Positions 3,074-59,740 of a stretch of 64,000 nucleotides of DNA are shown here, in pieces (the first letter of the stretch is position 1; every line of letters begins with the position of its first letter). Both the position numbers and the translations under genes were made by a program. This DNA comes from Candidatus Woesearchaeota archaeon (GTDB lineage Archaea > Nanobdellota > Nanobdellia > Woesearchaeales > DSVV01): positions 5,687 through 69,686 of the forward strand of contig JACPTB010000006.1 in NCBI GenBank assembly GCA_016192995.1, written 5' to 3'. The notes beneath the pieces were generated by a model. That model saw only the letters and a program-made list of their open reading frames with translations. It did no database searches and was not told the origin of the DNA.

Positions 3074-3232
3074 AGAACTTTGCAAAATTATGGTTACTGC
3101 CAATTTTGTGAGCATTTTCGAAATACTTATCGAGCAATTTTCGGAGTTCCAGAGAGAAAATTGCTTTGTTAAACAGAGATCTAAATGCGAACTGGCAGTA
3201 ACCCGAGCTATGCGAGTATTTTGCAAAGTTCT
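3074..3232 (+). mobile_element. Palindromic MITE-like element, copy A (AGAACTTTGCAAAAT termini)
   Basis: Outer stem is AGAACTTTGCAAAAT / ATTTTGCAAAGTTCT. Second stem is GGTTACTGCCA / TGGCAGTAACC. Apical hairpin GCAATTTTC-GGAGTTCCAGAGA-GAAAATTGC lies at 3134-3164. It fills the whole convergent gap between aglB and the tri-domain gene. No TSD was seen. Confidence 0.75.
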
Positions 3233-3240
3233 CTGAAGAA

Positions 3241-6200
3241 TTATTGCATTCCAAGATGTTCCAAAGCAATCAATGCATCCTTCTTGACTGCGGTTGTAAG
3301 CTTTTTTCCAAGTAATTCTTGTATCTTTCTTGGATCAGTAATGCCTTTAAAATCTGCTCTTTTCATATCAATATCTTGTTCTGTCAAAATATGCCCGGCA
3401 GATAAATCATTAGTATAAATCAAGCTTTTTTGCGCCACTTTTTTCACATCTAACTCACTTTGATGAAATGTTTTTCGATAGTTGCCAGGAGCAACTTCTG
3501 CTTGTCTTTTCTCTTCTGGAGTGATGAGGAGTTGGGCAAGTTTTTCAGGTGTTTGGTGCAAGATTTTTGCGCCTTGTAAAATTCTTCGTAATTCGTCTGG
3601 TTCAGCAGAAAATCTATGGTCGGGTCCTTTGTCAAATTTATTTAAGGTAAAATGTTTCTCTATAACTGAAGCTCCCAAAGTCACAGCTTTTAAAGGTACA
3701 GCTACACCAGGAGTATGATCTGAAAAACCAGTTGGTATATGATAGGTATCATGAAGATATTTCATCGCATTAAGATTTACCATTTCTGCGGTTGTAGGAT
3801 AAGCACTGACACAGTGAAGGAGAATTAATTGTTTATTTCCCGCAGCATAAATTGATTCAACAGCTCCATGGATTTCTAGATCATTCGAATACCCAGTTGA
3901 TAAGATAATTGGTTTTCCTTTCCTTGCGACATAGGACAAAAAAGGATAGTTGGTTAGATCATCAGATCCAATCTTATAAGCATCAACGCCAATTCTTTCA
4001 AGGATTTCAACGCTTTCCTTATCTCCTCCTGGCGTAGAAATAAAGATAAGCCCTTTTGCTTCAGCATATGCTTTGAGTTCAACAAAATCTTTTTCAGTTA
4101 ATTCATACCTCTTAAACATATCATATTGTTTTTCAGTAATTTTTGTTCCATCGGCTAGTTCATAGCTATATTCAAGATTTTTATCAGAAATAAATGCTTC
4201 TGTTTTAAATGTTTGAAATTTAATGCACTCGGCTCCTAAAGCAGCTGCAGTATCAATCATTTTTTTTGCTTGCTGAACGCTTCCATTATGGTTTAAGGTT
4301 GTTTCAGGTATAATAAAACATGGTTCGCCTGGTCCAATTCTTCTTTTACCGATATAAATATGCTGTGGCATAATATCACCTTCTTTAGTCCTTGACATTT
4401 TTTCTAGTTCACTGATAACTTCTTTGATGCATGCTACTACTTGTCTAACATCTTTAACGTCCATAGTTGGAAATAAAGGCAGTGTTATAATTCGAGCAAA
4501 GATGTCTTCAGTATGAGGATAATTAAGGGGATTAACAAGTTCAGTGCTGTAAAATTTTTCTTTATAATACGTGAAGTGATAGATGGGCGTATAATGGACA
4601 TTGACCCCTATATTTCTCTCGCGCATTTTTTTGAAAAAAAGATCTCGATCTAAAAAAGGATATTTTCTAGTATTAAGAAATATGGTAAATAGATGCCATG
4701 CATGTTTGATAGTATCGGAATAGTTGGGTGTATTTATTTGAGGCACATCTTTGAAAAGTTGTTGATATTCATGTGCTAACTCAGTCCTCTTTTTAATAAA
4801 TAATTCTAATTTATTAAGTTGTGAAATTCCCAATGCTGCCTGAAAATCAGTAATGCGATAATTTCTTCCTAAAGCAACATGGTCGTACTGCCAGGAAGAA
4901 TCTTTACTGCATCGTTCGCGTGTCTCTTTAGTAATACCATGATTTCTCAGAATTTTTAATTGTTTATGCCATTGTTCATTGTTAGTGGTTATAGCGCCGC
5001 CTTCACCAGTAGTAATATGTTTAACAGGGTGAAAGCTGAATATCGTCAAATCAGCAGCGGTTCCTACGTTTCTCTTTCCTAAGTTGTCGTAAGATGCGCC
5101 CAAAGCATGTGCAGCATCTTCAACTAAATAAAGATTATATTTTCGCGCAATTTCTTTGAGCTGATCAAAAGCAGCAGGATAACCTGCAAAATCAACATAG
5201 AGTATGGCTTTTGTGTTTGGAGTTATTTTCGCTTCAATTTTATTGACGTCAATAGTTAATGTTTCTGGAGAGATGTCTACAAATACAGGTTTGCATTTGT
5301 TATAAATAATGCTATTTGCTGTTGCAACAAAAGTAAAGGGCGTTGTTATAATCTCAGAATCTTCAGGCAAATCAAGAGCTTGGAGGGCTAATTCAAGCGC
5401 AGCTGTTCCAGAATTAACAGCTACTGCATAAGTACATCCAATAGTAGAACACAACGCTTTTTCGAATTCCTCAATTTTTGGTCCAGTTGTTATCCATGAT
5501 GATCGTAAAACTTCAGTAACTGCTGTTATGTCATCTTCTTCAATACAATGACGACCATAGGGTAAGAGTGAGGTAAATCGAGTGTAAGAAGAGGAAGGGC
5601 TCTTTTGATTTCTATCGTTTATATTTAATTCCATACAACTTTGATCTTTAATCCATGCTTCAGTTTTTTTAATACCATCTGTTAATGATGTTTTTGGTTC
5701 CCAATTAAGAAGAGTATGTGCTTTGGTATAGTTGCAAACAAGTTTCATGATTTCAGCTTGGGGGTGATGATGAGGAATATGTTTTATTTTTGATGGAACT
5801 GGTTCAATGGAAGCTGCAAGTTCATTAATCCTTATATCCTTGCCAGTACCTGCGTTTAATATTTGTCCAACAGCTTTTTGTGAAAAAGCAGCTTTTACAA
5901 TAAACTCAGCACAGTCTTCAACATAGAGTAAATCCCTTGTTTGTTCGCCGCTGCCAAAAATATTAAGGTCATGTCCTCGGACATGACTGCTAATAAAAAT
6001 GCTTACAACTCCTCCTTCAAGATTTGTTTTTTGAAATGGACCATAGGTATTGAATGGTCGTAAAATAACAACGGGCAATCCTAATCCATAATAATAAGAT
6101 AATGCTAGTTGTTCTCCTGCTAATTTAGTTCCTGCATATGGCGAGGCAGGTTTTACAGGATGTTCCTCAGTAATGCCTTTACCTATCTCTTCAGGAGCAA

Positions 6201-6597
6201 CAGTGTCATACACCATGCAGGTGCTGATAAAAACAAACGTAGTTTTTTGTTTCATGCAACCTTCTAATAAATTATACGTTCCAAGGATATTGCTATTAAA
6301 ACTCTTTTTGGTGTTATCCAAACTATTTTGCACTTCTATTTGCGCAGCTAAATGAATGCAAACATCAAAATTATTTTCGAATAATTTTGATGTTTGTTTA
6401 TAATCAACAATATCTCCTTGAATTAAACCTTTGAAAAGGGAGTGATTATTAAATTCAGCGAGGTTTTCAGCAGAGCTATTGCTCAGATTATCAATAACCC
6501 AAACAGTATGATTTTCTTGAAGCAGCTTTTTAACTACAGCTCTTCCAATAAATCCAGCTCCGCCAGTTACAAGCACATTCATATACTGAAGGAACAA
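3241..6597 (-). CDS. Tri-domain fusion: extended SDR epimerase/dehydratase + DegT/PseC-type PLP aminotransferase + NeuB/PseI/LegI-type nonulosonate synthase with SAF domain
   Basis: Uninterrupted 1118-aa ORF. Residues ~6-330 carry GGAGFIG and YAGTK. Residues ~345-735 carry LPYGRHCIEEDD and SFHPVKHITTGEGG. Residues ~750-1118 carry KFQTFK, GFSDHTPG and EKHFTL..GPDH, with a SAF-like C-terminus. An alternative start (M6) lies at 6582. Confidence 0.85.
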   Translation of the reverse strand: MFLQYMNVLVTGGAGFIGRAVVKKLLQENHTVWVIDNLSNSSAENLAEFNNHSLFKGLIQGDIVDYKQTSKLFENNFDVCIHLAAQIEVQNSLDNTKKSFNSNILGTYNLLEGCMKQKTTFVFISTCMVYDTVAPEEIGKGITEEHPVKPASPYAGTKLAGEQLALSYYYGLGLPVVILRPFNTYGPFQKTNLEGGVVSIFISSHVRGHDLNIFGSGEQTRDLLYVEDCAEFIVKAAFSQKAVGQILNAGTGKDIRINELAASIEPVPSKIKHIPHHHPQAEIMKLVCNYTKAHTLLNWEPKTSLTDGIKKTEAWIKDQSCMELNINDRNQKSPSSSYTRFTSLLPYGRHCIEEDDITAVTEVLRSSWITTGPKIEEFEKALCSTIGCTYAVAVNSGTAALELALQALDLPEDSEIITTPFTFVATANSIIYNKCKPVFVDISPETLTIDVNKIEAKITPNTKAILYVDFAGYPAAFDQLKEIARKYNLYLVEDAAHALGASYDNLGKRNVGTAADLTIFSFHPVKHITTGEGGAITTNNEQWHKQLKILRNHGITKETRERCSKDSSWQYDHVALGRNYRITDFQAALGISQLNKLELFIKKRTELAHEYQQLFKDVPQINTPNYSDTIKHAWHLFTIFLNTRKYPFLDRDLFFKKMRERNIGVNVHYTPIYHFTYYKEKFYSTELVNPLNYPHTEDIFARIITLPLFPTMDVKDVRQVVACIKEVISELEKMSRTKEGDIMPQHIYIGKRRIGPGEPCFIIPETTLNHNGSVQQAKKMIDTAAALGAECIKFQTFKTEAFISDKNLEYSYELADGTKITEKQYDMFKRYELTEKDFVELKAYAEAKGLIFISTPGGDKESVEILERIGVDAYKIGSDDLTNYPFLSYVARKGKPIILSTGYSNDLEIHGAVESIYAAGNKQLILLHCVSAYPTTAEMVNLNAMKYLHDTYHIPTGFSDHTPGVAVPLKAVTLGASVIEKHFTLNKFDKGPDHRFSAEPDELRRILQGAKILHQTPEKLAQLLITPEEKRQAEVAPGNYRKTFHQSELDVKKVAQKSLIYTNDLSAGHILTEQDIDMKRADFKGITDPRKIQELLGKKLTTAVKKDALIALEHLGMQ

Positions 6598-6626: not shown

Positions 6627-6868
6627 GTACGTAATAAGTCTGGGGTTTTAGCGCCTACTTTTGTGAAGCTCCTCGATATCTTTATTAGGGATTTTTCGGG
6701 GTTCCTTGCCGATAGGCAAGTCTTATAATCCCAGACGCAAGCCAACTTATGAATCCTTGATTTATATTATTGAGGGAGTCGGGATTATATTTATAGAGAG
6801 AAAAATCCAATTGATGTACGCTTCCAAAGCTGAACCGGCGCTAAAACCATAGAGGACTTATTACGTAC
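6627..6868 (+). mobile_element. Palindromic MITE-like element, copy B (GTACGTAATAAGTCT termini) carrying a nested 89-nt insertion
   Basis: Termini, second stem GGTTTTAGCGCC/GGCGCTAAAACC and apical stem GGATTTTTC/GAAAAATCC match copies D, F and G. The conserved loop is split between ..GGTTCC and AGAGAG... It abuts the stop codon of the gene at 6869. Confidence 0.8.
6706..6794 (+). other. Structured 89-nt insert inside the apical loop of copy B
   Basis: Absent from D, F and G at the homologous position. It contains hairpin TTGCC-GATA-GGCAA and the imperfect stem ATAATCCCAGAC / GTCGGGATTAT. Confidence 0.65.
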
Positions 6869-7912: not shown

Positions 7913-7982
7913 CTTTTGTAATTAACTTTTCACAACTAAACAATGGGAACTATCTGTTTATTTATAAAGGTTCTCAACAAGT

Positions 7983-8146
7983 GGCGATATTGAAAAGCTT
8001 ATGTTGCCATCAATATCGCGAAGCTTATCACCTAAAAATATTGAGTACTTTTCGGAGTGCCAGAGAGAAAAGTACTATCTATAAACTACGCCAAAGCTGA
8101 GCCGATGGCAACCTTTGCTTTGCAAAGAGAGCTTTTCAATATCGCC
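7983..8146 (+). mobile_element. Palindromic MITE-like element, copy C (GGCGATATTGAAAAGCT termini)
   Basis: Outer stem is GGCGATATTGAAAAGCT / AGCTTTTCAATATCGCC. Second stem is GTTGCCATC / GATGGCAAC. Apical hairpin is GTACTTTTC-GGAGTGCCAGAGA-GAAAAGTAC. A perfect 8-bp direct repeat CAACAAGT flanks it at 7975-7982 and 8147-8154. Confidence 0.85.
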
Positions 8147-9797
8147 CAACAAGTTGAAGAACTCTATCAGCAACTTTTCCATCAATCTTATATACTTGTT
8201 TTTTAAGGAATTCTTGGGTATTTTTCTTAAGTTCTTGCTGGATATCTTTGCCATATAAAATGGCAAAGATATTCCGAGTAAGATTCTGTTTTTTTTCAGT
8301 AACCACTACAGCATTGCTGGCAATGTATCCTTGATCACGAATGTTTGAAGAAAAACAAATTAATACTACGGGTACACCAAACATAATTGCTTCTAAAACA
8401 ATAGTAGAGCTTTCTGCAATAAGGGCGTCAGTGATCGCAAAGAGTTCGTAGATAGGGGTATCTTTAATAAAAATAACATCATCTAAATTTTGTTGATGAG
8501 CAAGCTTTCGATACCATGCTTCATGAGGATCTCGCGGATGTAATTTTACTACCAACCTAAGTTGCTTTTTATCTTGATTTTGTGTTTGCGCTACAGCAGC
8601 AACACTTTTAAAGAGTTCCGTTGCAAGATCATAAGTTTTCCATGGTTCTTTATCAATGCTTGTTGCATAAACAACAACTTTTTCTTCAGGATTGATGCCT
8701 AAACGCTGTTTAAGTTCCTGACTTTTATTTTTCTTTTGCATGCTGTTTTTTATAATAACAAGGTTATCACTTGCTAATTGTCCAACGATATGAATCTTCT
8801 CTTGAGGAAAAGAGCCTTGTTTTACAAGAAACTGTTTGGTATGTTCACCATAAACTGCAATAAGATCAGCAAGTGGATAATGATCAGCAATATCTTTTTG
8901 GGTATGAACATAATCCAGATCGTATCCTATCAGTCCTTCTTGAATTTCAAGGACAGGAATACCTAACCTTTTTGCAGCAACAATCACAGACTTTCCTGGT
9001 GTTGTATTCCCTGACATGGTGACAACAATTTTTGGTTTTGTTGCTTTGAGCATTTCTTTGCTTAACAGAATATACGTGATTGCTTCAGGTAAAATTTTAG
9101 AAAACATAAGTTGAAATTTCTTATATAACGAGGTGTACAAATCAAGCTCTTTTCCCTTAAATCTTGTTTGGAGCGCTTTCTTAAACTCAGGGCTTGTTAA
9201 GATTTTTTTTCCAAGAGCGGCATATTTCTTTTTCTCTTGAGAAACTTTTCTCATTATTTCTATTGAATAAAATTTTTCAATAGGATTAGTATCAGAATAC
9301 ATTGAAGTTTGCAGTTTTGTTTTTCCTCCCCATGAAGCTAAATCGTCGTAATAAAAAACAAAGAGTTTTTTATGCTGCTGACGAATTTTTTCAATAAGCG
9401 GTCCGATTCTTATGTTATTGGCTGCTACACAGTATGAGGGATGTGTTGTAACAACAATAGTATCCTCTTGATTATTAAGGTCAAGAGAATGTTGAGGAAT
9501 AATATATTTTCTTACAACAAACCGGGCTTGTTCAAGATGGTTAAGCAGAAAAGTATAGAGTAGTGAGAAAATATTCTTTTCTGGCAAAGGTTCTCCTTTG
9601 AAAATACCTTTCAATGAAGGATAATGGTAAAAAGAAGCATCTGCTAACCATCGTTCAGCAAACCACCATAGTGATGTTTGTTCATATGTTAATAATTGTT
9701 TTATATTTTTACCGTCAAGGATAGTTTTATCTGCAAACTCTTTTAAAAAAATCATTTCAGGATAATCTTGATTAATAGTGGTGTTATTTTTTTCCAT
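8136..9797 (-). CDS. GT-B-fold protein of uncertain function (TagF / epimerase_2 / PseG-like C-terminal half)
   Basis: 553 aa. The C-terminal pattern is KLHPRDP ... ESSTIVLEAIMFGVPVV. It lies next to nonulosonate genes. Its last 3 codons plus the stop are encoded by element C. Confidence 0.4.
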   Translation of the reverse strand: MEKNNTTINQDYPEMIFLKEFADKTILDGKNIKQLLTYEQTSLWWFAERWLADASFYHYPSLKGIFKGEPLPEKNIFSLLYTFLLNHLEQARFVVRKYIIPQHSLDLNNQEDTIVVTTHPSYCVAANNIRIGPLIEKIRQQHKKLFVFYYDDLASWGGKTKLQTSMYSDTNPIEKFYSIEIMRKVSQEKKKYAALGKKILTSPEFKKALQTRFKGKELDLYTSLYKKFQLMFSKILPEAITYILLSKEMLKATKPKIVVTMSGNTTPGKSVIVAAKRLGIPVLEIQEGLIGYDLDYVHTQKDIADHYPLADLIAVYGEHTKQFLVKQGSFPQEKIHIVGQLASDNLVIIKNSMQKKNKSQELKQRLGINPEEKVVVYATSIDKEPWKTYDLATELFKSVAAVAQTQNQDKKQLRLVVKLHPRDPHEAWYRKLAHQQNLDDVIFIKDTPIYELFAITDALIAESSTIVLEAIMFGVPVVLICFSSNIRDQGYIASNAVVVTEKKQNLTRNIFAILYGKDIQQELKKNTQEFLKKQVYKIDGKVADRVLQLVGRY

Positions 9798-11286
9798 AGT
9801 GAAAACCTAATGAGTTGAACAGCGATGTAATTTCATGAAGAGTGATAATTTTACTGGCAAACAATAAGAGCAGGTATAACAATAGTGAAATAAATGAAGA
9901 GACAAGAATGCTCATATAAATATTAGCGCTGAAAATGTTTCTCAAGAGCGCTAATGAGGCATAAAATATTCCTGAAATAAAAATAAGTTTAATCCAGTTC
10001 CAAAAAGGATTCTGGAACTGAAGTGTTTTTCTCAAAAAATAATACGCTAAAATAAACATGCAAAGATAGCTTATTGATGTAGCGAGCGCGGCTCCTCCTG
10101 TTGAAAATTGAGGAATAAGAAGAGCATTAAGGATAAGATTAATGAAACCAGAACTGATAATAACAACAGCATCGTATTTTGGTTTTCCTATAGCAACCAG
10201 CGTTGTGGTGTACATAAGCGCTAAGGAGAGAGCAATATTTCCAAAGAGCAGAATTCTCAAAGGCATGGTTGCTGGAAGATATTCTTGTTTAAACAGAACA
10301 GTTATAATGACAGGAGCAAATTCAAAAATAAGAAGTGAAAGCGGCAAAAGAAGAAGCGGTACATATTTATTAAATAAATATATTCCACTAAGGAGTTTTT
10401 CTTTTTCGTTTTTTGTCCATAATTCAGAAATAGTTGGGAAGAAAACATATCGTAGTGACATGCCAATATAACCAATCAGTGCTGCGGTCGGAAACGCAAC
10501 ATTATAAACAGCAGCTTCTTTAACTCCTTGCAAATAGGTCAAAAATATAGTATCAATATAATTAGCAAAAATTCCTCCAAAAATAGTCATCGTAGCGGGA
10601 AGTGAAAAGTAGATCAGTTCTTTGACAAAAGGTTTTGTAAGGCTATACTTAACTTGGAATAAATCAGGGAATACTAATTTCCAAAAAATGTAGGCATAGA
10701 TAATTAAGACTACCAAAAAAGAAAAAATGTACCCGAGTACCGGCGAAAAAATATTATTGAAAAATATAAAGAAAATAAAGGTAGTCACCCATAACAAAAT
10801 TATTTTTGTTAATTCAATGCTTGAAAAGAACCCAATCTTTTGAAAGCCAAGAAATGTTTGCCTGAGCAATAACACTCCTGATGAAAAAACAAAAGAAATG
10901 CTTAATCCAATAATCACCAGTTTTGCAGTTTCATCTTTAAAATAAGAAGTGCTAAGAAAAGGTGCAAGTAAGAAGAAAACAATAACGCTGATCAGCGCAA
11001 CAATGAGAATAATGCTTCCTACAAATATAATGCTTGCCTTGACCAGGTCTTTTCGTTTTTCAACAAGATATTGAGGGATATATTTTACCATGGTCCGCGA
11101 AAAACCTAGATCAACAAATCCCATAAAAAACCCTAAAAACGCAAAAACACTGTAAAACAGCCCAAATTCAGTTATAGATAGATTTCTGCTGAGGTAAATC
11201 CGATAGCCATAGGTAAGAAACGCAACAACAATAGAGGTAATAAAAGTAATAGAAAATCCCTTGATAATATGCTTTAAATAACCCAT
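9784..11286 (-). CDS. Wzx-like polysaccharide flippase (MOP superfamily)
   Basis: 500 aa with about 14 hydrophobic segments. It sits within the glycan cluster and overlaps the downstream gene by 14 nt. Confidence 0.75.
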   Translation of the reverse strand: MGYLKHIIKGFSITFITSIVVAFLTYGYRIYLSRNLSITEFGLFYSVFAFLGFFMGFVDLGFSRTMVKYIPQYLVEKRKDLVKASIIFVGSIILIVALISVIVFFLLAPFLSTSYFKDETAKLVIIGLSISFVFSSGVLLLRQTFLGFQKIGFFSSIELTKIILLWVTTFIFFIFFNNIFSPVLGYIFSFLVVLIIYAYIFWKLVFPDLFQVKYSLTKPFVKELIYFSLPATMTIFGGIFANYIDTIFLTYLQGVKEAAVYNVAFPTAALIGYIGMSLRYVFFPTISELWTKNEKEKLLSGIYLFNKYVPLLLLPLSLLIFEFAPVIITVLFKQEYLPATMPLRILLFGNIALSLALMYTTTLVAIGKPKYDAVVIISSGFINLILNALLIPQFSTGGAALATSISYLCMFILAYYFLRKTLQFQNPFWNWIKLIFISGIFYASLALLRNIFSANIYMSILVSSFISLLLYLLLLFASKIITLHEITSLFNSLGFHYGKK

Positions 11287-11330
11287 GACCTATAAAAGTG
11301 GCTTCTTATTTATAAAATTATAACTGAAGA

Positions 11331-11483
11331 GTACGTAATAAGTCTGGGGTTTTAGTGCCTATTTCGTGAAGCTCTTCTTAGTCAACATCGGGGATTTTTC
11401 GGAGTGCCAGAAAGAAAAATCCAATGTTAAATAACCTTTTGAAGCTGAACTGGCACTAAAACCATAGAAGACTTATTACGTAC
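11331..11483 (+). mobile_element. Palindromic MITE-like element, copy D (GTACGTAATAAGTCT termini)
   Basis: Same architecture as F and G. Its second stem carries a compensatory change, GTTTTAGTGCC / GGCACTAAAAC. The loop is GGAGTGCCAGAAA. Flanking 8-bp repeats are ACTGAAGA (11323-11330) and ACTGAAAA (11484-11491). An extra right-end fragment AAGACTTATTAC lies at 11491-11502. Confidence 0.8.
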
Positions 11484-13236: not shown

Positions 13237-14967
13237 TTATTCAATAAAACTCTCTGGATCATCCATAATTATTTTGGCAATTTCAGGCCGCATAAATTCT
13301 TTAGGGGGAAATTGTTTCTTCAATAACATTTTTCGCGCTTCTGTTCCTGAAATGACAAGGTGATGCTCTTGATCATGAGGGCAAGTATGTTCAGTAGCAA
13401 TATTTTCGCATTTCTTGCAATAATATGGACCATGAAGTTTCATAATAGTTATCCCTAAATCTGAAAACAAGTCGGCGTACGCGTGGCCAGCATATTTAGC
13501 ATAATAATTGCCAACACCTGCATGATCTCTGCCAATAATAAAATGTGTGCAGCCAAAGTTTTTCCTAATAATCGCATGAAATACTGCTTCTCGAGGACCT
13601 GCATAACGCATAGCTGTCGTTAATATCCCAAAGACAACTCTGTTTTTATTGTAAAAATGAGCAACAGCATGCTGATAGGCTTTGATAATAACTCGTGGTG
13701 AAAAATCTCCAGGTTTTTTCCATCCTACTAATGGTTGAATAAACAATCCATCAACATGTTCAAGCGCTGTTTTTTGCAAATGTTCATGAGCGCGATGAGG
13801 CGCGTTTCTTGTTTGAAAACCAACAATGGTTTTCCATCCTTTCTCAGCAAACATTTTTCGCGTTTGCATGGGATCATAATTAAACCCTTGAAAATCACCA
13901 ATCGGATAGCGATTAATAAGTTCTATCTTTCCTGAAATAAGGATATTGCTTCTATTGAAAAGCCTTTTTACTCCGGGATGATTAACATCTGTTGTGCCAT
14001 ACACTTGCTGAGCTTCTTTTTGTTTATCATAAGTAAAAATATCATCCACTTCTAACAAGGCAATTGGTGTTGTATCTTCTGCTCGAAGAATCACCTGATC
14101 TTTCTTATGAAATTGTTGCGCTTGTTCTTGAGGAACTGGAAGTACTATGGGGATAGTAAAGGGAACATTATTGGTTAATCTTCCTTTTTCAACAACAGAT
14201 TCGTAATCTGCTTTATTCATAAATCCTTGTAAGGGACTAAACACCCCTGTCGCAATATTTTCAGCGTCAAGAATAGAGTCTCTGCCAATGATAAGCTGTT
14301 TAAAATTAGTAAGCTGAGAAAGAATATTTTTCTTCTTTTTATCATCCATAAACCCTTGGACGAGATTCCCTCCATGTGCCTGAAGAGAAATATTATTATT
14401 ATTTGAAGCAGTAATATTATTGACAAGGATTCCTTGTTGTTTAAGATATTCCAATATATGATGGGCAGATTCTTCAACAGGAAGTTTATCAGTCTCTAGA
14501 ACAAGCTCCGGATGATCAGATTCTTGATATGGTTGATCAACGCCAACAAAATTAGTCATAGTTCCTTGTTGCACTTTTTTATAATGTCCTTGAGGATCTC
14601 GCTCAGCGCAAATTTGAAAAGGGCATTTAACATAAACCTCTATAAATTTTCCTGCAGTCTCAATATTCTTTCTAATAGTTTTTCTAACTTCTCTATCTCC
14701 TGAAACAAAAGCTGCTAACACAAGCTGATTGTTTTGAGCAAGAGTTGTTGCAAGATACGTTACCCGTTGAAGATGTTTTTTTCTATCTTCAGGAGAATAT
14801 CCTAAGTCAGGAGACAGCACTTTACGTACCTCATCTCCATCCAATACAACATGGGCAATAGCATGTCTTTTAAGCTTCTCACTTATGAAGCGTGAGATGG
14901 TTGTTTTCCCAGCTCCGCTTAACCCAGTAAACCAAATAACAGTGCCTTTCGGTGTATGATTATGCAT
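13237..14967 (-). CDS. Bifunctional PAPS synthase: N-terminal APS kinase + C-terminal sulfate adenylyltransferase
   Basis: Kinase motifs: GLSGAGKTT, LDGDEVR and ERDPQGHYKK. Sulfurylase motifs: FQTRNAPHRAHEHL, MRYAGPREAVFHA and HFIIGRDHAGVG. The start is chosen at MHNHTPKG, which has an upstream A/T-rich box. The ORF track extends to 15021. Confidence 0.85.
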   Translation of the reverse strand: MHNHTPKGTVIWFTGLSGAGKTTISRFISEKLKRHAIAHVVLDGDEVRKVLSPDLGYSPEDRKKHLQRVTYLATTLAQNNQLVLAAFVSGDREVRKTIRKNIETAGKFIEVYVKCPFQICAERDPQGHYKKVQQGTMTNFVGVDQPYQESDHPELVLETDKLPVEESAHHILEYLKQQGILVNNITASNNNNISLQAHGGNLVQGFMDDKKKKNILSQLTNFKQLIIGRDSILDAENIATGVFSPLQGFMNKADYESVVEKGRLTNNVPFTIPIVLPVPQEQAQQFHKKDQVILRAEDTTPIALLEVDDIFTYDKQKEAQQVYGTTDVNHPGVKRLFNRSNILISGKIELINRYPIGDFQGFNYDPMQTRKMFAEKGWKTIVGFQTRNAPHRAHEHLQKTALEHVDGLFIQPLVGWKKPGDFSPRVIIKAYQHAVAHFYNKNRVVFGILTTAMRYAGPREAVFHAIIRKNFGCTHFIIGRDHAGVGNYYAKYAGHAYADLFSDLGITIMKLHGPYYCKKCENIATEHTCPHDQEHHLVISGTEARKMLLKKQFPPKEFMRPEIAKIIMDDPESFIE

Positions 14968-15063
14968 ATCTAAGAGAATTATTAGTTGTTTTAAAAAGAT
15001 TGCCTTTGTTAGAAAAAACATATATATCTAACTAAGTTTTGCACTAGTAACGAGCTGTTATTT

Positions 15064-19895: not shown

Positions 19896-19941
19896 ATTCC
19901 AGCAAAAGTACCAAGACCCTTTTAAATTTTTCCTCTAAGTT

Positions 19942-20103
19942 GGCTCTGTAGAAAATGTAGTTTTTGGCATCTTTTGGTGAGGCTCTTCACGTTTATATGT
20001 GGGGATTTTTCGGAGTGCCAGAGAGAAAAATCCAATAAAATATACTCTTTAACAGCCGAACTGATGCCAAAACCGAGGCTATGCCGAGATTTTCTACAGA
20101 GCC
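19942..20103 (+). mobile_element. Palindromic MITE-like element, copy E (GGCTCTGTAGAAAAT termini)
   Basis: Outer stem is GGCTCTGTAGAAAAT / ATTTTCTACAGAGCC. Second stem is GTTTTTGGCATC / GATGCCAAAAC. Apical hairpin GGATTTTTC-GGAGTGCCAGAGA-GAAAAATCC lies at 20003-20033. The right-arm bulge is CGAGGCTATGCCGAG. It sits in a divergent promoter gap. No TSD was seen. Confidence 0.8.
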
Positions 20104-21698: not shown

Positions 21699-21707
21699 GC
21701 TTTTTTA

Positions 21708-21861
21708 GTACGTAATAAGTCTGGGGTTTTAGCGCCTACTTTTGTGAAGCTCTTCTTAAATTCACTTTGGGGATTTTTCGGAGTTCCAGAGAGAAAAATC
21801 CAATTGATATATGCTTGAAAAGCTGAACCGGCGCTAAAACCATAGAAGACTTATTACGTAC
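21708..21861 (+). mobile_element. Palindromic MITE-like element, copy F (GTACGTAATAAGTCT termini)
   Basis: Complete architecture with loop GGAGTTCCAGAGA. A perfect 8-bp direct repeat CTTTTTTA flanks it at 21700-21707 and 21862-21869. Its right terminus supplies the stop codon (21854-21856) of the convergent GT4 gene. Confidence 0.85.
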
Positions 21862-23005
21862 CTTTTTTAAGAACTTTATTATACACACCAATATATTTTT
21901 CTATGATCTTTTTCCAGTCATATTCTTTCTCAACATTTTGCTGAATAGCTTTTCCTAAATTAAGGCGTAATGATCTAATTCTTAAACGAAGAATTCTATT
22001 CGCAATTTGTTCAGGTTCATCTTTAACAACAAAACCATTTTTGCCATTTTCAACAATATCATTGACTATGCCGACGGGCGTGCAAACTAATGCTAATCCA
22101 GATGCACCAGCCTCAAGAATAGTTTGTCCAAAATTTTCAGATAATGAAGTATAAACAAATATATCAGCTTTTTTGTATTCATCAATTAATTCTTTGCCAT
22201 ATTTAAGTCCAGCAAACGTAATGTTCTCACCTACATCAAGCTCCTTAACGAGTTCTTTCATTTCATCAAGATAGCCAGGTTTATCAGTTGCGCTGTTAAC
22301 AATTTCTTCTCCAACAATCCGAAGAACAATAGCTTCTTTCTTCAATAAAGACATAGCTCTAATCAATGGTGCAATATTTCTATTTCTTGATATTCTCCCA
22401 ACAAACAGCAGGGTCAATATTTTATTTTTTCTTTTAGTTCTATCAACATAATATTGTTGTGCATCAATTCCCATAGGAATAACCTGTATTTTATCTTCAG
22501 CAACGCCATACTTTAGTGCTTCTTTTTTTTCGAAATGCGATGAAACAATAACAGCATCTGCTTTTTTTGCTACCATTTTCATAGTCAGGACATCATATAA
22601 TCTATACGGCAGTTTAACCCAACTATTTTTCAAATATTTGTCATACCCTAACAACCCACCATGGGTATTCAGCACAAAGGGTTTTCTCAATAATTTTGCC
22701 ATAACAAAGCTGAGATCTGTTTGAAAACTTCTATAATTATGAGCATGAATAATATCAGTGTTCTTAAACACAGATATCATGCTCGGTGTTATAATATATT
22801 GTAAAAATCTAAACCATGGTTTGCATCGTTCAACAGAAACCCCTTTATAATGTTCACATTCAGGAGCATCTTTCGCTTTAAAGGTGGTTGTTGTAATAGG
22901 AGAATGTATTCCTTGTTGTTCAAGTCTAAGAGAAATTTGATAAGCTTGATTAACAGGACCTGTTACATTTGGATAAAATGTTTCAATAACCCTTATAACC
23001 TTCAT
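21854..23005 (-). CDS. GT4-family glycosyltransferase
   Basis: 383 aa. Motifs seen: GRISRNRNI and TSLSENFGQTILEAGASGLALV. Confidence 0.8.
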   Translation of the reverse strand: MKVIRVIETFYPNVTGPVNQAYQISLRLEQQGIHSPITTTTFKAKDAPECEHYKGVSVERCKPWFRFLQYIITPSMISVFKNTDIIHAHNYRSFQTDLSFVMAKLLRKPFVLNTHGGLLGYDKYLKNSWVKLPYRLYDVLTMKMVAKKADAVIVSSHFEKKEALKYGVAEDKIQVIPMGIDAQQYYVDRTKRKNKILTLLFVGRISRNRNIAPLIRAMSLLKKEAIVLRIVGEEIVNSATDKPGYLDEMKELVKELDVGENITFAGLKYGKELIDEYKKADIFVYTSLSENFGQTILEAGASGLALVCTPVGIVNDIVENGKNGFVVKDEPEQIANRILRLRIRSLRLNLGKAIQQNVEKEYDWKKIIEKYIGVYNKVLKKGT

Positions 23006-23054
23006 GGTTATAAGGGTTAATCGAAATCTTTATAAATATGTTTTTTCAAAGTAT

Positions 23055-26091: not shown

Positions 26092-26244
26092 GTACGTAAT
26101 AAGTCTGGGGTTTTAGCGCCTACTTTTGTGAAGCTTTTCTATCTTTACGTTGAGGATTTTTCGGAGTTCCAGAGAGAAAAATCCAATATTTAAATCACTT
26201 TGGAGCTGAACCGGCGCTAAAACCATAGAAGACTTATTACGTAC
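26092..26244 (+). mobile_element. Palindromic MITE-like element, copy G (GTACGTAATAAGTCT termini)
   Basis: Starts at the nucleotide after the TAG stop of the GT2 gene. The architecture is complete, with loop GGAGTTCCAGAGA. There is no clean TSD. Confidence 0.8.
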
Positions 26245-29846: not shown

Positions 29847-29997
29847 AAATGTAGTTTTTGGCATCTCTTTGTGAGGTTCTTTAATTTCATAAGTGAGGAT
29901 TTTTCAGAGTGCCAGAGAGAAAAATCCAATAAAATAAATCCATCAAAAGCCGAACTGATGCCAAAACCGAGGCTATGCCGAGATTTTCACCAGAGCC
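29836..29997 (+). mobile_element. Palindromic MITE-like element, copy H (GGCTCCGGTGAAAAT termini)
   Basis: Same subfamily as E, with compensatory outer-stem changes. The loop is AGAGTGCCAGAGA. A direct repeat TATAAAC flanks it at 29829-29835 and 29998-30004. Confidence 0.85.
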
Positions 29998-30041
29998 TAT
30001 AAACTAAAAAGTATATAAATAAGTGATAATGAGACATATCT

Positions 30042-32889: not shown

Positions 32890-32947
32890 TTTATAAATCT
32901 TGTTTCGGTATGGGCTTCACAGCCCATACTAGAACAAGATTTATAAA
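32890..32947. promoter_or_regulatory. 58-nt near-perfect palindrome whose two ends are TTTATAAA boxes of a divergent gene pair
   Basis: Sequence is TTTATAAATCTTGTTTCGGTATGGGCT-TCAC-AGCCCATACTAGAACAAGATTTATAAA, with 2 mismatches. The boxes lie 24-31 nt from the ATG at 32866 (minus strand) and 42-49 nt from the ATG at 32989. Confidence 0.55.
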
Positions 32948-34057: not shown

Positions 34058-34108
34058 TAGGCTCTGCTCCGAATGTATTGCGTAGCAATACATTCGGAGC
34101 AGAGCCTA
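34058..34108. repeat. 51-nt perfect hairpin resembling the bare termini of the GGCTCTG-type element
   Basis: Sequence is TAGGCTCTGCTCCGAATGTATTGC-GTA-GCAATACATTCGGAGCAGAGCCTA. Compare the copy J terminus GGCTCTGTCCCGAATG. Confidence 0.7.
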
Positions 34109-42089: not shown

Positions 42090-43020
42090 AAAAGTTTGTT
42101 TAGTAATTCCTGCTTATAACGAAAAAAGATTAATAAAACCAACCCTAACTCATGTTCCAGATACTATTGATAGAATCTATGTTATTGATGATGCTTCTAC
42201 TGATGGGATGGGAGATGTTGTTAAAGAAGTGATGAAGAAAGATAAAAGAATTTCTCTGATTCAGCATAAGAAAAATAAAGGTGTTGGTGCAGGTATTATT
42301 ACAGGATATAATTATGCTCTTAAAGAAGGTTATGATATTGCAGTAGTTATTGGCGGAGATTATCAAATGGATTTAGGGGATTTGCCGAATTTTTTAGATC
42401 CTCTGATTAATGATGAAGCAGATTATACAAAGGGAAATAGGTTTTTGTACGCAAAAGGGATTCCTGACGTTATGCCAAGTCATAGATTATTTGGAAATTC
42501 AATGTTATCATTAATGACTAAAATTGCTTCGGGGTATTACAAAGTGTTTGACACCATGGATGGGTACACAGCAATTAATAAAAAAGCCTTAGAAGTTGTT
42601 GATTGGAAAAATGCTTGGAAAGGATATGGGTATCCGGCAGAATTTCTTATTAGATTAAATGCTTATGGATTAAAGGTAAAAGATGTTCCTCGACGGGCTA
42701 TTTATTTAAAAGGTGAACGACAGTCGCAAATTAAGGTAGTGAAATATATGCTGAAAGTAATGCCTATGCTGATGAGAGGTTTTTTTTGGCGTTTAGGAAA
42801 CAAATATGTTTTGCGAGATTTCCATCCCCTGGTATTCTTTTATATTATGGGTTTAATGCTTTTTCCGTTAGGATTATTATTAGGGTTTTGGATAATGTAT
42901 CGTTTAACCTTCAATTTGGGTATTTCTATTAATTGGGCAATTTTATGTGCATTATTAGTGATAACAGGTTTTCAATCAATTCTTTTCGCAATGTTTTTTG
43001 ATATGGAACAAAGCAAATAG
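42076..43020 (+). CDS. GT2-family glycosyltransferase with C-terminal TM segments
   Basis: 314 aa. Motifs seen: CLVIPAYNE and YVIDDASTDG. Confidence 0.8.
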   Translation: MYQNKKVCLVIPAYNEKRLIKPTLTHVPDTIDRIYVIDDASTDGMGDVVKEVMKKDKRISLIQHKKNKGVGAGIITGYNYALKEGYDIAVVIGGDYQMDLGDLPNFLDPLINDEADYTKGNRFLYAKGIPDVMPSHRLFGNSMLSLMTKIASGYYKVFDTMDGYTAINKKALEVVDWKNAWKGYGYPAEFLIRLNAYGLKVKDVPRRAIYLKGERQSQIKVVKYMLKVMPMLMRGFFWRLGNKYVLRDFHPLVFFYIMGLMLFPLGLLLGFWIMYRLTFNLGISINWAILCALLVITGFQSILFAMFFDMEQSK

Positions 43021-43032
43021 GCGAGTAATAAA

Positions 43033-43608
43033 TTATGGTTTATTACCGCTTATTTGCTTTGTTCCAATATATAACAGTTGATACCGCAAATTTCGCGGAA
43101 TTGGCAGGGGAAGATAAGGAATGCCTTCTCGTCTGATAATTTTCAATCCGCAATAATGAAACATCCGGTCAAGCATCCGGGGAGTAAAATGGTGGAGATG
43201 AACTTCTCCGCTGTACAATCCATATTCACGTTGAAAGTAAAATCGTTTGATCATGAACAGATCACAGAAAAAAATAGGAAGATAGCAGGAATTAGGTGTG
43301 GTAATAATAACACGCCCTCCTTTTTTCACAACGCGTTTGCATTCTCGTAAAAAGGCAAAAGGATTTTCAAGATGTTCAAGGATTTCTCCTGCAACAACAG
43401 TGTCAAAAGTATTATCTTTGAAAGGAAATTTTTCATGAACATTGTGTGATACTAATTTAATATAATTGCTCGGTAGTTTAACCTTATCATTTAAATCCAT
43501 GCCAATGACGTTTTTAAGATAAGGATTAGGGTTTGCAGCGCAACCAATATCAAGCACGTTGCCGGAAGCATAACTCCCTATTCTTTTTAACCTAATTCTT
43601 TCATCCAT
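43033..43608 (-). CDS. Class I SAM-dependent methyltransferase
   Basis: 191 aa. Motifs seen: VLDIGCA, FDTVVAGEILEHLENP and KKGGRVIITTP. Confidence 0.75.
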   Translation of the reverse strand: MDERIRLKRIGSYASGNVLDIGCAANPNPYLKNVIGMDLNDKVKLPSNYIKLVSHNVHEKFPFKDNTFDTVVAGEILEHLENPFAFLRECKRVVKKGGRVIITTPNSCYLPIFFCDLFMIKRFYFQREYGLYSGEVHLHHFTPRMLDRMFHYCGLKIIRREGIPYLPLPIPRNLRYQLLYIGTKQISGNKP

Positions 43609-43631: not shown

Positions 43632-44945
43632 TTATATATTTTTATGAGTGGAAGGAATAATTTTACTACTTTTTATAGACAAATATCCTACCATAAACAA
43701 AAATGCAATAATAGTTGCAACTATAGCTCCATAGAGTTCAAATAAGGGAATAAGGAGCCAATTAAGAGCAATATTAATAACAGCTGCGATAACAATGGCA
43801 ATCGTAGCATAACGAGAGCCAGGTAAGCTGGTAGCATTAAAAAAAGAGGCATATAAATAATAAACAAGGCTAATGGTTGCCGATAGGGTAAAGAGAAGAA
43901 TATACCATATATTGTAAGGATATTCTTTTCCAAACAATAAAACCAATAAACTGCTTACTATTCCGATAAGAAGATACAGTCCAGGAAGGATTCTGAACAA
44001 CTTATTAATTCTCTCCCAGATATTCTTTTTATCCCTTGTAGTTGTTTCAGGAAAAAGGATCGTAGTAAAAACACTGACAAATAGCTCGACAAAGATCATG
44101 GTTCCAAGATAATAAACTTGATATAATCCTAATGCTTTGCTTCCAAGGAAATAATGGACAAAGACATTATCAATATAAGTTAAAATCACAATAGAAATAA
44201 CACTTAGTCCATTATAACTTCCGTAAGTAAACAATTTTTGCATAAGAGGATAATTCCATGACCATTTCCATAAACGAAAAAAATCAGGAATAAGGAGGGC
44301 AAAGGAAAAAATGTATCCAGAAAATAACGCAATTATTGACGGAAGTAGCGAATAATTCTCAAAATAAAAAAAGACTACCATAATAACTGCAAAAGCAATA
44401 AGAGATCTTAAAAGTACAATGTTAGTGAGGAGATAATATCTTTTTAATCCCTGCGCTACATGCCGTGCAAAGGTAAATAAGGTGTTTCCAAGAGCAAGGA
44501 GGATTGCAAATATAAACAATGATTTATCAATGTTAAGGACAGTTGAAATCTCTTGAGAAAGAATATAGAACAGCGCTGAAAATAAAACAGTAAACAATCC
44601 AACAATAATAGTAGAATTACTAACAATTCTAGAAAGTTCTTTATGATTAGTTGTTTCTGAAGCATATTTTGTCAGACTGACATTAACTCCCCATAAGAAT
44701 GGCACAAACAAGAATGAAGCAATAGTTTGCACAAGCGTTAAATCGCCAAATAAGCTTGCTCCTAAAAACCGCGCAGTTACCAACTGGAAAAGAAATGCAA
44801 AGAGTCGAGAAAGACCAAATCCTATAAATACAAAGCTCATGCTTTTACCTAAGATCAGGGCTGTTGATGATGGTTCTTCCCCAAAAATAAGAAAATACGC
44901 TTTTCTCAACAGAGAATCCAACGGTTTCATCCACTTGTTTTCCAT
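43632..44945 (-). CDS. Wzx-like polysaccharide flippase (MOP superfamily)
   Basis: 437 aa with about 12 TM segments. Confidence 0.7.
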   Translation of the reverse strand: MENKWMKPLDSLLRKAYFLIFGEEPSSTALILGKSMSFVFIGFGLSRLFAFLFQLVTARFLGASLFGDLTLVQTIASFLFVPFLWGVNVSLTKYASETTNHKELSRIVSNSTIIVGLFTVLFSALFYILSQEISTVLNIDKSLFIFAILLALGNTLFTFARHVAQGLKRYYLLTNIVLLRSLIAFAVIMVVFFYFENYSLLPSIIALFSGYIFSFALLIPDFFRLWKWSWNYPLMQKLFTYGSYNGLSVISIVILTYIDNVFVHYFLGSKALGLYQVYYLGTMIFVELFVSVFTTILFPETTTRDKKNIWERINKLFRILPGLYLLIGIVSSLLVLLFGKEYPYNIWYILLFTLSATISLVYYLYASFFNATSLPGSRYATIAIVIAAVINIALNWLLIPLFELYGAIVATIIAFLFMVGYLSIKSSKIIPSTHKNI

Positions 44946-44990
44946 AGAGGTTATAAATTGAATGTGCTTTTAATGTTTTATCGTTTTCAA

Positions 44991-45156
44991 GGCTTCGTCG
45001 AAAAATAAGGTTAGCGCCCTCAGGTCGAAACTCTTCACAGTAACGGTTTAAAGAGGTCAGAGGGACGGCTCCTTCGGAGCGTGACCGTTTATGCGATTGA
45101 AATATGCAAAGTTTCGAAGGCGCTAACCTGGCGACAGCCATTTTTTGGATGAAGCC
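44991..45156 (+). mobile_element. GC-rich 166-nt rod-like element, copy K (divergent member of the palindromic superfamily; stand-alone ncRNA not excluded)
   Basis: Five nested helices are visible: 44991-44999/45148-45156, 45009-45018/45119-45128, 45025-45031/45111-45117, 45042-45047/45084-45089 and 45068-45072/45076-45080. The terminus GGCTTCGTCGAAAAAT resembles that of E. The second stem GGTTAGCGCC/GGCGCTAACC resembles that of B, F and G. A right-arm-only bulge is present, and the core GTCAGAGGGA resembles GCCAGAGAGA. TTTTCAA occurs at 44984-44990 and 45159-45165. Confidence 0.55.
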
Positions 45157-45212
45157 CATTTTCAATCAGTAAACTATATATAGGGTAGTTTAGCACTAAC
45201 AACTAAGAATCG

Positions 45213-51359: not shown

Positions 51360-51422
51360 TGATTTATATAGTTTATTACGATCTTGGGTATCGCCAAAGA
51401 TCGTAATAAACTATATAAATCA
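51360..51422. promoter_or_regulatory. 63-nt palindrome (26-bp perfect arms) containing the TATA boxes of a divergent gene pair
   Basis: Sequence is TGATTTATATAGTTTATTACGATCTT-GGGTATCGCCA-AAGATCGTAATAAACTATATAAATCA. The TATA-like ends lie about 23-30 nt from the ATGs at 51340 (minus strand) and 51442 (plus strand). Confidence 0.6.
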
Positions 51423-57521: not shown

Positions 57522-57576
57522 AATGATAACACCTTCTTTCAGCAATTGGCATATAGTTTCCTTTATAAAAGTTGCC

Positions 57577-57602
57577 AAAACCTAAGAAGACTTATTACGT
57601 AC
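57577..57602 (+). mobile_element. Solo right-end fragment of the GTACG-type element
   Basis: AAAACCTAAGAAGACTTATTACGTAC matches the right terminus of D, F and G (AAAACCATAGAAGACTTATTACGTAC). No left half is present. Confidence 0.7.
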
Positions 57603-58714: not shown

Positions 58715-58759
58715 AGTAACTATGGTTATTAAGAAGTATTATTTAATTAATATGGTTTT

Positions 58760-59236: not shown

Positions 59237-59550
59237 GCAATCAACTTAAGATCTTTTTCCAATTCATCTACATCGTAATTAATTGAGATTTTATACTGCT
59301 TTAATACATCAAAGAATTCCCACGGTGAAATGCCAGCAAACACAGAAGCTTGTTCTAATGAGAATATCCCTGTTTGGTATTGTTCTAAAGCTTTTTTCAA
59401 TCTCCATTGTTTTATAGCTTCTGCTAATAATCTTCTCACTACTTCAGATTTCTCTAAATGTTCTGCTTTTGCAATCTCTTGCAGGTCATTCACAAAACTC
59501 TCTGATAACCTTGTTGTTAAGACTTCACCCATGTATTCATTGTAATACAA
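59221..59550 (-). CDS. RHH + UPF0175 antitoxin-like protein
   Basis: 109 aa. It has an RHH-like segment, LEKSEVVRRLLAEAI, and then YQTGIFSLEQASVFAGISPWEFFDVLKQYKI. Confidence 0.75.
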   Translation of the reverse strand: MYYNEYMGEVLTTRLSESFVNDLQEIAKAEHLEKSEVVRRLLAEAIKQWRLKKALEQYQTGIFSLEQASVFAGISPWEFFDVLKQYKISINYDVDELEKDLKLIAWKKQ

Positions 59551-59577
59551 TGTAATATATATGTTTTTTGTTTTTGC

Positions 59578-59740
59578 GGCTCTGTCCCGAATGAAGTTTT
59601 TGGTGCCATGCTTGTGATTATCTTAAGAATAAATAATCGAGAAAAAAGGGAATTCCAATGGGAATTTTTTCCTTCTTATCAACAAGTGGGATAATCACGG
59701 CACCAAAACCGAGACGTAAGCCGAGATTCGGGACAGAGCC
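59578..59740 (+). mobile_element. Palindromic MITE-like element, copy J (GGCTCTGTCCCGAAT termini, different apex)
   Basis: Outer stem is GGCTCTGTCCCGAAT / ATTCGGGACAGAGCC. Second stem is GTTTTTGGTGCC / GGCACCAAAAC. The right-arm bulge is CGAGACGTAAGCCGAG. The apex is GAAAAAAGGGAATTCCAATGGGAATTTTTTC. A perfect 8-bp direct repeat GTTTTTGC flanks it at 59570-59577 and 59741-59748. Confidence 0.85.

Follow-up and report, generated by a model that had tools for sequence, protein, structure and literature searches.

The stretch of DNA analysed here (the window; 64,000 nt) is archaeal, has a G+C content of approximately 34%, and contains ten full copies, designated A to H, K, and J, of a superfamily of rod-like palindromic elements. 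[quoted passage not shown] Two AglB/STT3 oligosaccharyltransferases are encoded in the window, and the 28 open reading frames (ORFs) scanned with Pfam mostly encode glycosyltransferases, sugar-nucleotide enzymes, and flippases; the other scanned ORFs encode radical S-adenosylmethionine enzymes, a fusion for the synthesis of 3′-phosphoadenosine 5′-phosphosulfate (PAPS), an FAD-binding protein, and a UPF0175 protein, or are without assignment. Neither a tRNA nor an Rfam RNA was found in the window.

The coordinates, termini, stems, and loop given for the ten copies in the initial annotation were all correct on inspection of the sequence. All ten copies, which represent four end types, lie on the + strand (two-sided p = 0.002). 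Copy A (3074-3232) carries the terminal repeat AGAACTTTGCAAAAT, the apical stem GCAATTTTC/GAAAATTGC, and the loop GGAGTTCCAGAGA. Copy C (7983-8146) has type I ends (GGCGATATTGAAAAGCT), and type II ends are found in copies B (6627-6868; GTACGTAATAAGTCT), D (11331-11483), F (21708-21861), and G (26092-26244). Copies E (19942-20103), H (29836-29997), and J (59578-59740) have type III ends, and those of copy K (44991-45156) are type III-like (GGCTTCGTCGAAAAAT). Seven occurrences of the loop pattern TTTTCRGAGTKCCAGARAGAAAA, all on the + strand, were counted in the window, with none expected from 100 shuffles, and the apical loop is retained in 8 of the 10 copies, as originally claimed. A covariance model built on 25 copies was used for unfiltered scoring over the whole window, and its matches were exactly the ten copies and one palindrome composed of terminal repeats only (34060-34106). 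The + strand score was far above the − strand score for every copy. Copies A (129.8 bits; 20 bits on the − strand), C (139.1 bits), D (116.9 bits), E (145.5 bits), F (119.6 bits), G (122.7 bits), and H (142.3 bits) scored 117–146 bits, and J and K scored 55.8 and 38.3 bits on the + strand and 9.9 and 10.9 bits on the − strand, respectively. Copy B was matched partially in the window-wide scan and scored 83.2 bits at full length. It measures 242 bp including a nested insertion, an unrelated, hairpin-rich segment of 89 nt (6706-6794) that splits the apical loop between GGGGTTCC and AGAGA.

From the outside inwards, the fold consists of P1, which is the terminal repeat of approximately 16 bp; a left-side junction of 2–5 nt; P2, of 10–12 bp; a bulge of 5–7 nt on the left versus 0–1 nt on the right; P4, in which G-Y-G-A-R-G-C-T is paired with A-G-C-Y-G-A-R-C and the opposed G-A steps form a tandem G·A/A·G mismatch; two internal loops inside P4, constant in length (18–20 and 19–22 nt) and free in sequence; and P5, of 9 bp, capped by an apical loop of 13 nt (GGAGTKCCAGAGA). 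P3 is confined to the right arm, where it lies between P2 and P1 as a mini-hairpin of 2–5 bp flanked by GA...GA, the loop of which is often GAAA, GAGA, or GAA; it is absent from type II. Copy E, the exemplar of this anatomy, has P1 at 19942-19956/20089-20103, P2 at 19962-19971/20063-20072, P4 at 19977-19984/20054-20061 (GTGA-GGCT / AGCC-GA-AC, with the tandem G·A), the internal loops at 19985-20002 and 20034-20053, P5 at 20003-20011/20025-20033, the apical loop GGAGTGCCAGAGA at 20012-20024, and P3 within 20073-20088 (GA-GGC-TAT-GCC-GA). Three conserved features are asymmetric and confined to one strand, namely the tandem G·A of P4, the GA-flanked mini-hairpin of the right arm, and the GGARTTCC motif of the apical loop. 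Nested insertions like that of copy B were also seen outside the window, at the related loci L020 (in P3), L043 (in P2), and L061 (in P5); the insertion in copy B, which occurs once in the window, has hairpins of its own (TTGCC-GATA-GGCAA and ATAATCCCAGAC...GTCGGGATTAT).

Further copies without the canonical loop, which had been named as a finding that would speak against a conserved structure, do exist: J, K, L017:5575-5739, L021:4172-4337, and L008:4198-4394. These divergent members keep P1, P2, and the right-arm asymmetry, together with a related apical motif (GGAATTCC...GGGA). Copy J carries the alternative apical domain AAAAAAGGGAATTCCAATGGGAATTTTTT; in copy K the apical domain contains a C(TTCG)G hairpin and P4 is fully Watson–Crick; the tandem G·A is replaced by Watson–Crick pairs in J, K, and L017:5575. 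External copies were retrieved by the loop pattern, and their loop conservation therefore holds by construction; the loop evidence free of this retrieval bias comes from the window (8 of 10 copies) and from the model-found divergent copies with a different apical domain. A longer relative of 317 nt (L004:4797-5113) has type I ends, a 7/8 duplication, and the right-arm GA motif around a G+C-rich interior with a very stable fold (−135 kcal/mol), UNCG/GNRA-like loops, and no Rfam match; the same ends may be able to carry other cargo.

Mobility was assessed in 50 non-redundant full copies drawn from the window, archaeal metagenome-assembled genomes (MAGs), and metagenomes. Target-site duplications of 8 bp are perfect in 20 of the 50 copies and match at 7 of 8 positions in another 11; the duplicated sequence is different at every insertion site, and the length of 8 bp is the same across all terminal-repeat types. 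In the window, perfect duplications flank copies C (CAACAAGT, 7975-7982 and 8147-8154), F (CTTTTTTA, 21700-21707 and 21862-21869), and J (GTTTTTGC, 59570-59577 and 59741-59748), and 7/8 duplications flank D (ACTGAAGA/ACTGAAAA) and H (TATAAAC); that of copy A is not clear (4/8 matching). The elements measure 153–166 bp, end in perfect or near-perfect terminal inverted repeats of 15–17 bp, and have no coding capacity common to the copies, the sole ORF of at least 100 aa that spans a window copy (44845-45165; 106 aa, − strand) lying over K alone. They are multi-copy and dispersed, with ten copies in 64 kb and others in numerous MAGs and contigs from metagenomes, and a single interior is surrounded by terminal repeats of at least five types (GGCGGCATTGAAAAG, GTACGTAATAAGTCT, GGCTCTGT..., GGGTTGTTGCGAAATT, and AGAACTTTGCAAAAT). 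The elements are therefore MITEs, because terminal inverted repeats, target-site duplications, dispersal, and the lack of shared coding capacity are combined in them; the contrast with MITEs that had been drawn in the initial annotation is not borne out. Truncated derivatives are present as well. One is the terminal-repeat-only palindrome of 47 nt at 34060-34106 (approximately 25 bits on both strands), in which type III terminal repeats stand alone (GGCTCTGCTCCGAATGTATTGC-GTA-reverse complement) and which represents either a footprint of the family or a derivative that has lost its interior; the other is a solo type II right end on the + strand (57568-57602; CCAAAACC-TAAGA-AGACTTATTACGTAC) from which the remainder of the element is absent. 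Public short-read assemblies that include the gene adjoining E all break inside E, and no empty allele was readable in them; such breaks are expected because E is a repeat.

Elements of the REP/PATE class (repetitive extragenic palindromes and palindrome-associated transposable elements), mobilized by IS200/IS605 or RAYT transposases, were ruled out by the terminal repeats and 8-bp duplications, as REP/PATE elements have neither and carry subterminal hairpins. At three related loci (L014:4438-4635, L023:4011-4168, and L054:529-686), an extra outer inverted repeat (GTCAAGTTAAGTG...CACTTAACTTGAC) encloses the element; in this subfamily the true element is approximately 200 nt in length, and the simple test for an 8-bp duplication fails there.

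Pairing was examined in 28 copies, in which 97.1% of the pair cells are standard-paired and both sides have changed in 31 of 41 pairs, with 194 double-change cells. None of 500 shuffles reached the observed value on any of five measures, and pairing fell to 28–45% when the partners were slid by 1–3 columns; covariation of this strength, together with its controls, indicates that pairing is maintained. The compensatory pairs reported between D and B/F/G (stem 2), H and E (outer stem), and J and E/H (stem 2) are all correct. The earlier view of a constrained, non-decaying interior is likewise upheld by the double substitutions, by the non-Watson–Crick and one-arm features, and by the identity of F and G at 116 of 116 positions outside the internal loops. 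Strong covariation in a palindrome is, however, no evidence for an RNA by itself.

If the elements were mobile genes for a structured non-coding RNA, their + strand transcript would fold as a rod, the kink-turn (K-turn)-like G·A step would bind L7Ae or a similar protein, the apical loop would be functional, and mobility would be secondary. Several one-strand features are of the kind expected of such an RNA. The tandem G·A lies beside a CUGA and is flanked by a pair that covaries as C-G in 16 and U-A in 12 copies with no intermediates; the right-arm hairpin has GA...GA flanks, GAAA/GAGA loops, and a covarying stem (P3); and C(UUCG)G and UNCG-type loops occur in the alternative apical domains. 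In addition, the unpaired + strand segments are purine- or A-rich (A 52% versus T 26% in the right internal loop, in 24 of 28 copies; p = 1.6e-5), and the folding energy of the + strand is slightly better than that of the − strand in 31 of the 50 copies, a weak advantage (p = 0.06). A selected RNA helix accepts G·U far more readily than A·C, but the non-standard cells include 14 G·T and 13 A·C, i.e. there is no excess of G·U. Rfam covariance models gave no match at the gathering thresholds, and even at permissive ones (E ≤ 5 for the window, E ≤ 1 for four loci) no match coincided with an element. Element orientation is random with respect to the adjacent, outward-firing promoters (the left end is flanked 24 times and the right end 21 times) and with respect to upstream gene ends (read-through from the upstream gene would enter the + strand in 15 cases and the − strand in 11), and a function of read-through RNA was rejected on the latter result. 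No consistent internal promoter with a transcription factor B recognition element (BRE) and TATA box was found in the elements; TATA-like strings in the right loop merely reflect its A-richness and have no BRE before them. P4 also lacks the 3-nt bulge of a K-turn and a C box, and its G·A is converted to Watson–Crick pairs in J, K, and L017:5575. An archaeal box C/D small RNA or canonical K-turn RNA would have a C box (RUGAUGA) and a D box (CUGA) that form a K-turn with a 3-nt bulge, and guides of 10–12 nt beside the D/D′ boxes; it was rejected, because, although the right arm has CUGA and the left arm GA, the two bases preceding the GA are paired (covarying 16:12) and the 3-nt bulge, the C box, and the C′/D′ boxes are lacking. 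No relationship to tRNA or tmRNA was found. The structured RNA suggested at the outset is thus mostly unsupported, and we consider mobile genes for such an RNA unlikely. A DNA-level hairpin is favoured over a + strand RNA because G·T and A·C are equally frequent, orientation is random, and Rfam has no match. The structure-specific DNA-binding target, which had been offered as the other possibility, fits better than a structured RNA, at the level of inference rather than demonstration, and we infer that constraint acts on DNA folded as a single strand or as a cruciform, which is recognized during transposition or replication.

A functionless interior, in which hairpin-templated repair or gene conversion copies one arm to the other and the core is shared through recent common descent, would account for the strictly Watson–Crick pairing with no tolerance of wobble and for stems that are identical while loops diverge, but it is very unlikely: arm-to-arm homogenization would erase the tandem G·A, the right-arm hairpin, and the asymmetric junctions, the persistence of which across at least five end types and many MAGs argues against a purely passive palindrome; the variable loops keep their lengths; and the core is common to lineages whose stems have changed at most positions.

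The contrast between stems and loops is most evident in copies F and G, the arms and apical hairpins of which are identical at 116 of 116 positions while the two internal loops agree at 23 of 40; copy B behaves likewise. Speculatively, an extruded hairpin would fit such a pattern, since exposed loops would mutate fast and stems would be corrected against each other. A role of the variable loops as guides or spacers of the bridge-RNA or CRISPR type was rejected, as their match to their own insertion site scored 6.40 compared with 6.35 for permuted pairings, and in a comparison with 0.56 Mb of related DNA they gave matches of chance length only (10–13 nt). On other contigs, neighbouring elements lie on the same strand in two pairs and on opposite strands in three.

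When the flanks are read outward from either element end, positions 1–8 correspond to the target duplication, positions 9–14 are A-rich (66% A at position 12), and positions 15–19 are T-rich and are followed by A. Starts of TATA-like hexamers peak at +15 to +17 (13–19 per position) versus 0–5 elsewhere out to +65, and a TATA-like box at +13 to +19 is present in 41 of 98 flanks versus approximately 10 expected (binomial 1e-15). Of the 50 elements, 39 have a BRE/TATA box 14–19 bp beyond at least one end, with the same TATA spacing across all terminal-repeat types. An outward ORF starts within 150 nt in 31 of the 41 TATA-bearing flanks, and in 20 of these 31 the start codon follows the TATA start by 27–36 nt, which is the spacing of leaderless archaeal genes. 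The elements are thus located at about −45 of mostly leaderless genes, with the 8-bp duplication and then the A-rich BRE separating the element end from the TATA box, and transcription from the promoter is directed away from the element. In the window, TATA or TATA-like boxes were identified beside copies C (TTTATAAA, 7961-7968, in the left flank), D (TTTATAAA, 11309-11316, 30 nt away from position 11286, where the leftward gene 9784-11286 starts), E (TTTTAAAT, 19921-19928, 33 nt from the leftward gene start at 19895), H (TATATAAA, 30012-30019, 30 nt upstream of the rightward gene start at 30042), and K (CTTTTAAT, 44967-44974, 29 nt from the leftward gene start at 44945).

Most commonly, an element lies between the end of one gene and a promoter. 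On the side opposite the promoter, the stop codon of the upstream gene is found at distances of −113 to +11, in contrast to the constant TATA distance, which argues that the elements hug the promoter and do not simply fill spacers at random. Copy G begins right after the stop codon of gene 25072-26091, and the right terminal repeat of copy F contains the stop codon of the leftward ORF 21854-23005. Neighbouring ORFs end a few bases inside F (21854-21861), C (8136-8146), and H (29836-29846), where the terminal repeat therefore provides the neighbour's stop codon and last codons. A separate inverted repeat with 27-nt arms (32890-32947) lies in the divergent intergenic region between a gene ending at 32866 (−) and one starting at 32989 (+); each of its arms opens with TTTATAAA, giving two TATA boxes that face each other as a palindrome.

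Targeting is favoured over selection alone as the cause of this position, because the elements hug the promoter and because the duplication would let promoters survive insertions much closer than those seen. The layout between gene end and promoter would also be expected if the copies were exapted host cis-elements maintained by host-level selection, the hairpin with its T4–T5 runs serving as a bidirectional terminator or insulator or the GGARTTCC motif binding a dimeric regulator. The stems do carry T4–T5 runs on both strands, the apical motif is quasi-palindromic (that of the alternative domain, GGAATTCC, is fully palindromic), and the caulobacterial CIR repeats, the terminal loop of which has a conserved GANTC, provide a precedent (PMC2229807). 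Such exaptation is nevertheless highly improbable, as fixed TATA spacing and duplications indicate specificity of insertion and not of retention, truncated or interrupted copies exist (B, 34060-34106, 57568-57602, L020, L043, and L061), 11 of the 50 copies do not adjoin a promoter, and no conserved neighbouring regulator gene was found.

Taken together, the best explanation, which we regard as probably correct, is a superfamily of non-autonomous MITEs of DPANN-type archaea that are located next to promoters and work as DNA hairpins. A DDE-type transposase, possibly ISL3-like, would act in trans and make staggered cuts of 8 bp, and the target would be chosen by promoter sequence, by promoter shape, or by bound TATA-binding protein (TBP) and transcription factor B (TFB), which would provide a safe harbour in a very compact genome. 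The near-full-length palindrome would function as a DNA hairpin or cruciform and not as RNA, with the tandem G·A, the GA-flanked right-arm hairpin, and GGARTTCC as marks of one strand and one end that the transposition machinery would read; the stems would be held strictly Watson–Crick while the unpaired internal loops drift or mutate fast. As a tentative extension, integration may be steered to the upstream edge of the BRE/TATA, most simply by the promoter bent by TBP/TFB, and the machinery may recognize the folded hairpin and not the end sequences. Recognition of the folded hairpin would explain why many ends surround one core, why the stems are strictly Watson–Crick, and why the loops are hypervariable.

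Several observations weigh against this explanation. The GNRA-type and C(UUCG)G loops of the small hairpins and the tandem G·A beside CUGA resemble features of RNA, as do the purine- or A-rich unpaired segments of the + strand and its slightly better folding (p = 0.06). A TATA box at the fixed spacing is missing from 11 of the 50 elements, and the adjacency to promoters could partly reflect selection in a compact genome and not targeting. At least four terminal-repeat types coexist in one small genome, which is awkward for sequence-specific recognition of the ends. Finally, 0.56 Mb of related DNA yielded neither a transposase nor an autonomous element with matching ends, and a search there for long elements that also have duplications gave only the 317-nt relative at L004:4797-5113.

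As no autonomous partner with matching ends was found, the transposase family is a guess. Pfam gave no transposase among the 28 window ORFs scanned; the other 27 ORFs of at least 100 aa lay outside that scan. In tblastn searches of the related loci, the IS3, IS5, Tn3, and ISL3 transposases of plasmid pWW0 gave no match, and ISPpu12 TnpA (ISL3) gave no credible match (best E-value, 0.15). An all-against-all comparison of the ORFs around more than 50 copies revealed no recurrent neighbouring protein. A relation to ISL3 is only a lead, provided by the GGCTCT of the type III ends and the 8-bp duplications.

ISL3 elements make 8-bp duplications. Their ends begin with GGCTCT, and a second subterminal inverted repeat is present in an ISL3 element from Fervidobacterium (PMC5398504, Table 3). 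The type III ends of the present family also open with GGCTCT, and the replication-linked orientation bias of ISL3 in Firmicutes (PMC3971601) recalls the ten window copies on the same strand. In contrast, the ends of types I, II, and IV and those of copy A begin with sequences other than GGCTCT, and no ISL3 transposase was found in the related loci.

Bacterial MITEs that fold into long stem-loops include Correia/NEMIS, ERIC/IRU, RUP, and CIR (PMC2229807, PMC3184786). The present elements resemble them in being non-coding, intergenic, multi-copy sequences of 100–200 bp with terminal inverted repeats, target duplications, and an imperfect palindrome over the whole element, and CIR likewise exposes a conserved motif (GANTC) in its terminal loop. 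The bacterial MITEs, however, mostly duplicate TA, whereas the present archaeal family duplicates 8 bp, combines many end types with one core, and has a fixed site upstream of the BRE/TATA. ERIC acts as an RNA in an orientation-dependent manner, unlike the present elements, the orientation of which is unrelated to the neighbouring genes. Among archaeal MITEs, the Sulfolobus SM elements and the palindromic repeats of Methanocaldococcus jannaschii have been described (cited in PMC2229807), and these are also small archaeal non-autonomous elements with terminal inverted repeats.

Two further systems are comparable in part. Integron attC sites are recombined by a tyrosine integrase in bacterial cassette arrays and have no variable target duplications. 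They are nevertheless imperfect palindromes whose structure is conserved above their sequence, and their asymmetric extrahelical bases mark the strand that is recognized as a folded single strand. The Ty3 retroelement integrates at the start sites of Pol III through TFIIIB, which contains TBP and Brf1, a homologue of TFB/TFIIB. It resembles the present family in its fixed distance from a TBP-bound promoter element and in the use of a safe harbour in a compact genome, but it is a long terminal repeat retrotransposon with its own integrase, whereas the present elements are DNA MITEs for which a TBP/TFB tether is hypothetical.

A census of 2024 reported a MITE-dense Woesearchaea genome with 105 MITEs per Mb, in which the elements were not described (PMC11602168); the density in the window is approximately 156 elements per Mb, and the census probably counted elements like these. 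In the literature on archaeal MITEs, no description of this family, its conserved core, or its promoter-adjacent position was found, nor was a report of BRE/TATA-adjacent insertion in archaea, and a survey of archaeal insertion sequence (IS) elements from 2026 contains nothing specific on these elements. A match to an already described archaeal MITE or IS end, which could have undone the original proposal, was not found. MITEs as such are already known; what is new in the present ones is the conserved folded core and the position next to promoters.

The loop pattern was found on 21 contigs of the genome collection, all of them archaeal MAGs, 17 being labelled Nanoarchaeota, Nanoarchaeia, or Woesearchaeota and four Methanosarcinales. 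The host is probably a DPANN archaeon, because matches to the loop pattern are concentrated in such MAGs, and this assignment follows the distribution of the element, not phylogeny. The scan for bacterial promoters and terminators is irrelevant, as the host is archaeal. Metagenomes contain approximately 35 true matches; ten others (L028, L034, L038, L042, L052, L055, L056, L059, L060, and L064) are unrelated chance matches, nine of which are one identical stretch. Viral contigs gave no match to the loop pattern and chance-level matches to the terminal-repeat and P2–P4 patterns, the covariance model confirming 0 of 10 P2–P4 matches and the terminal-repeat matches being judged by number alone. 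The four Methanosarcinales-labelled contigs (L001, L005, L016, and L019) carry typical type I copies, and one neighbouring protein on these contigs is 51% identical to a protein on the Nanoarchaeia-labelled contig L011; these copies could reflect mis-binning or a link between host and symbiont.

Among the genes of the window, one ORF of 1118 aa (3241-6597, − strand) combines three enzymes of a nonulosonic-acid-type pathway in an unusual fusion: an NAD-dependent epimerase/dehydratase, a DegT-type aminotransferase, and a NeuB-type synthase with a SAF domain. The ORF at 13237-15021 (− strand) is a fusion of adenosine 5′-phosphosulfate (APS) kinase and ATP sulfurylase, similar to PAPS synthase, and its presence within a glycosylation island suggests sulfated glycans. 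Other strong short palindromes with arms of 17–36 nt, unrelated in sequence to the family, were found at 51360-51422, 29196-29247, 22965-23041, 43004-43066, and 6359-6396. That at 29196-29247 is a perfect hairpin with a 24-bp stem just beyond the end of ORF 28070-29161 and within ORF 29067-29846, and that at 6359-6396 lies inside the long fused ORF 3241-6597.

DPANN genomes are very small and gene-dense. DPANN archaea are, at the same time, among the most MITE-dense archaea in the census (PMC11602168). The elements described here point to genuine promoters, mostly those of leaderless genes, in lineages without cultured members, explain breaks in assemblies, and constitute a compact, structure-defined substrate for finding the responsible transposase. 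If the targeting proposed above is true, landing at a fixed distance upstream of promoters would explain how compact DPANN genomes tolerate MITEs, and promoter-steered integration would be the archaeal counterpart of Ty3/TFIIIB targeting and, to our knowledge, the first described case of transposition directed by promoter architecture in archaea.

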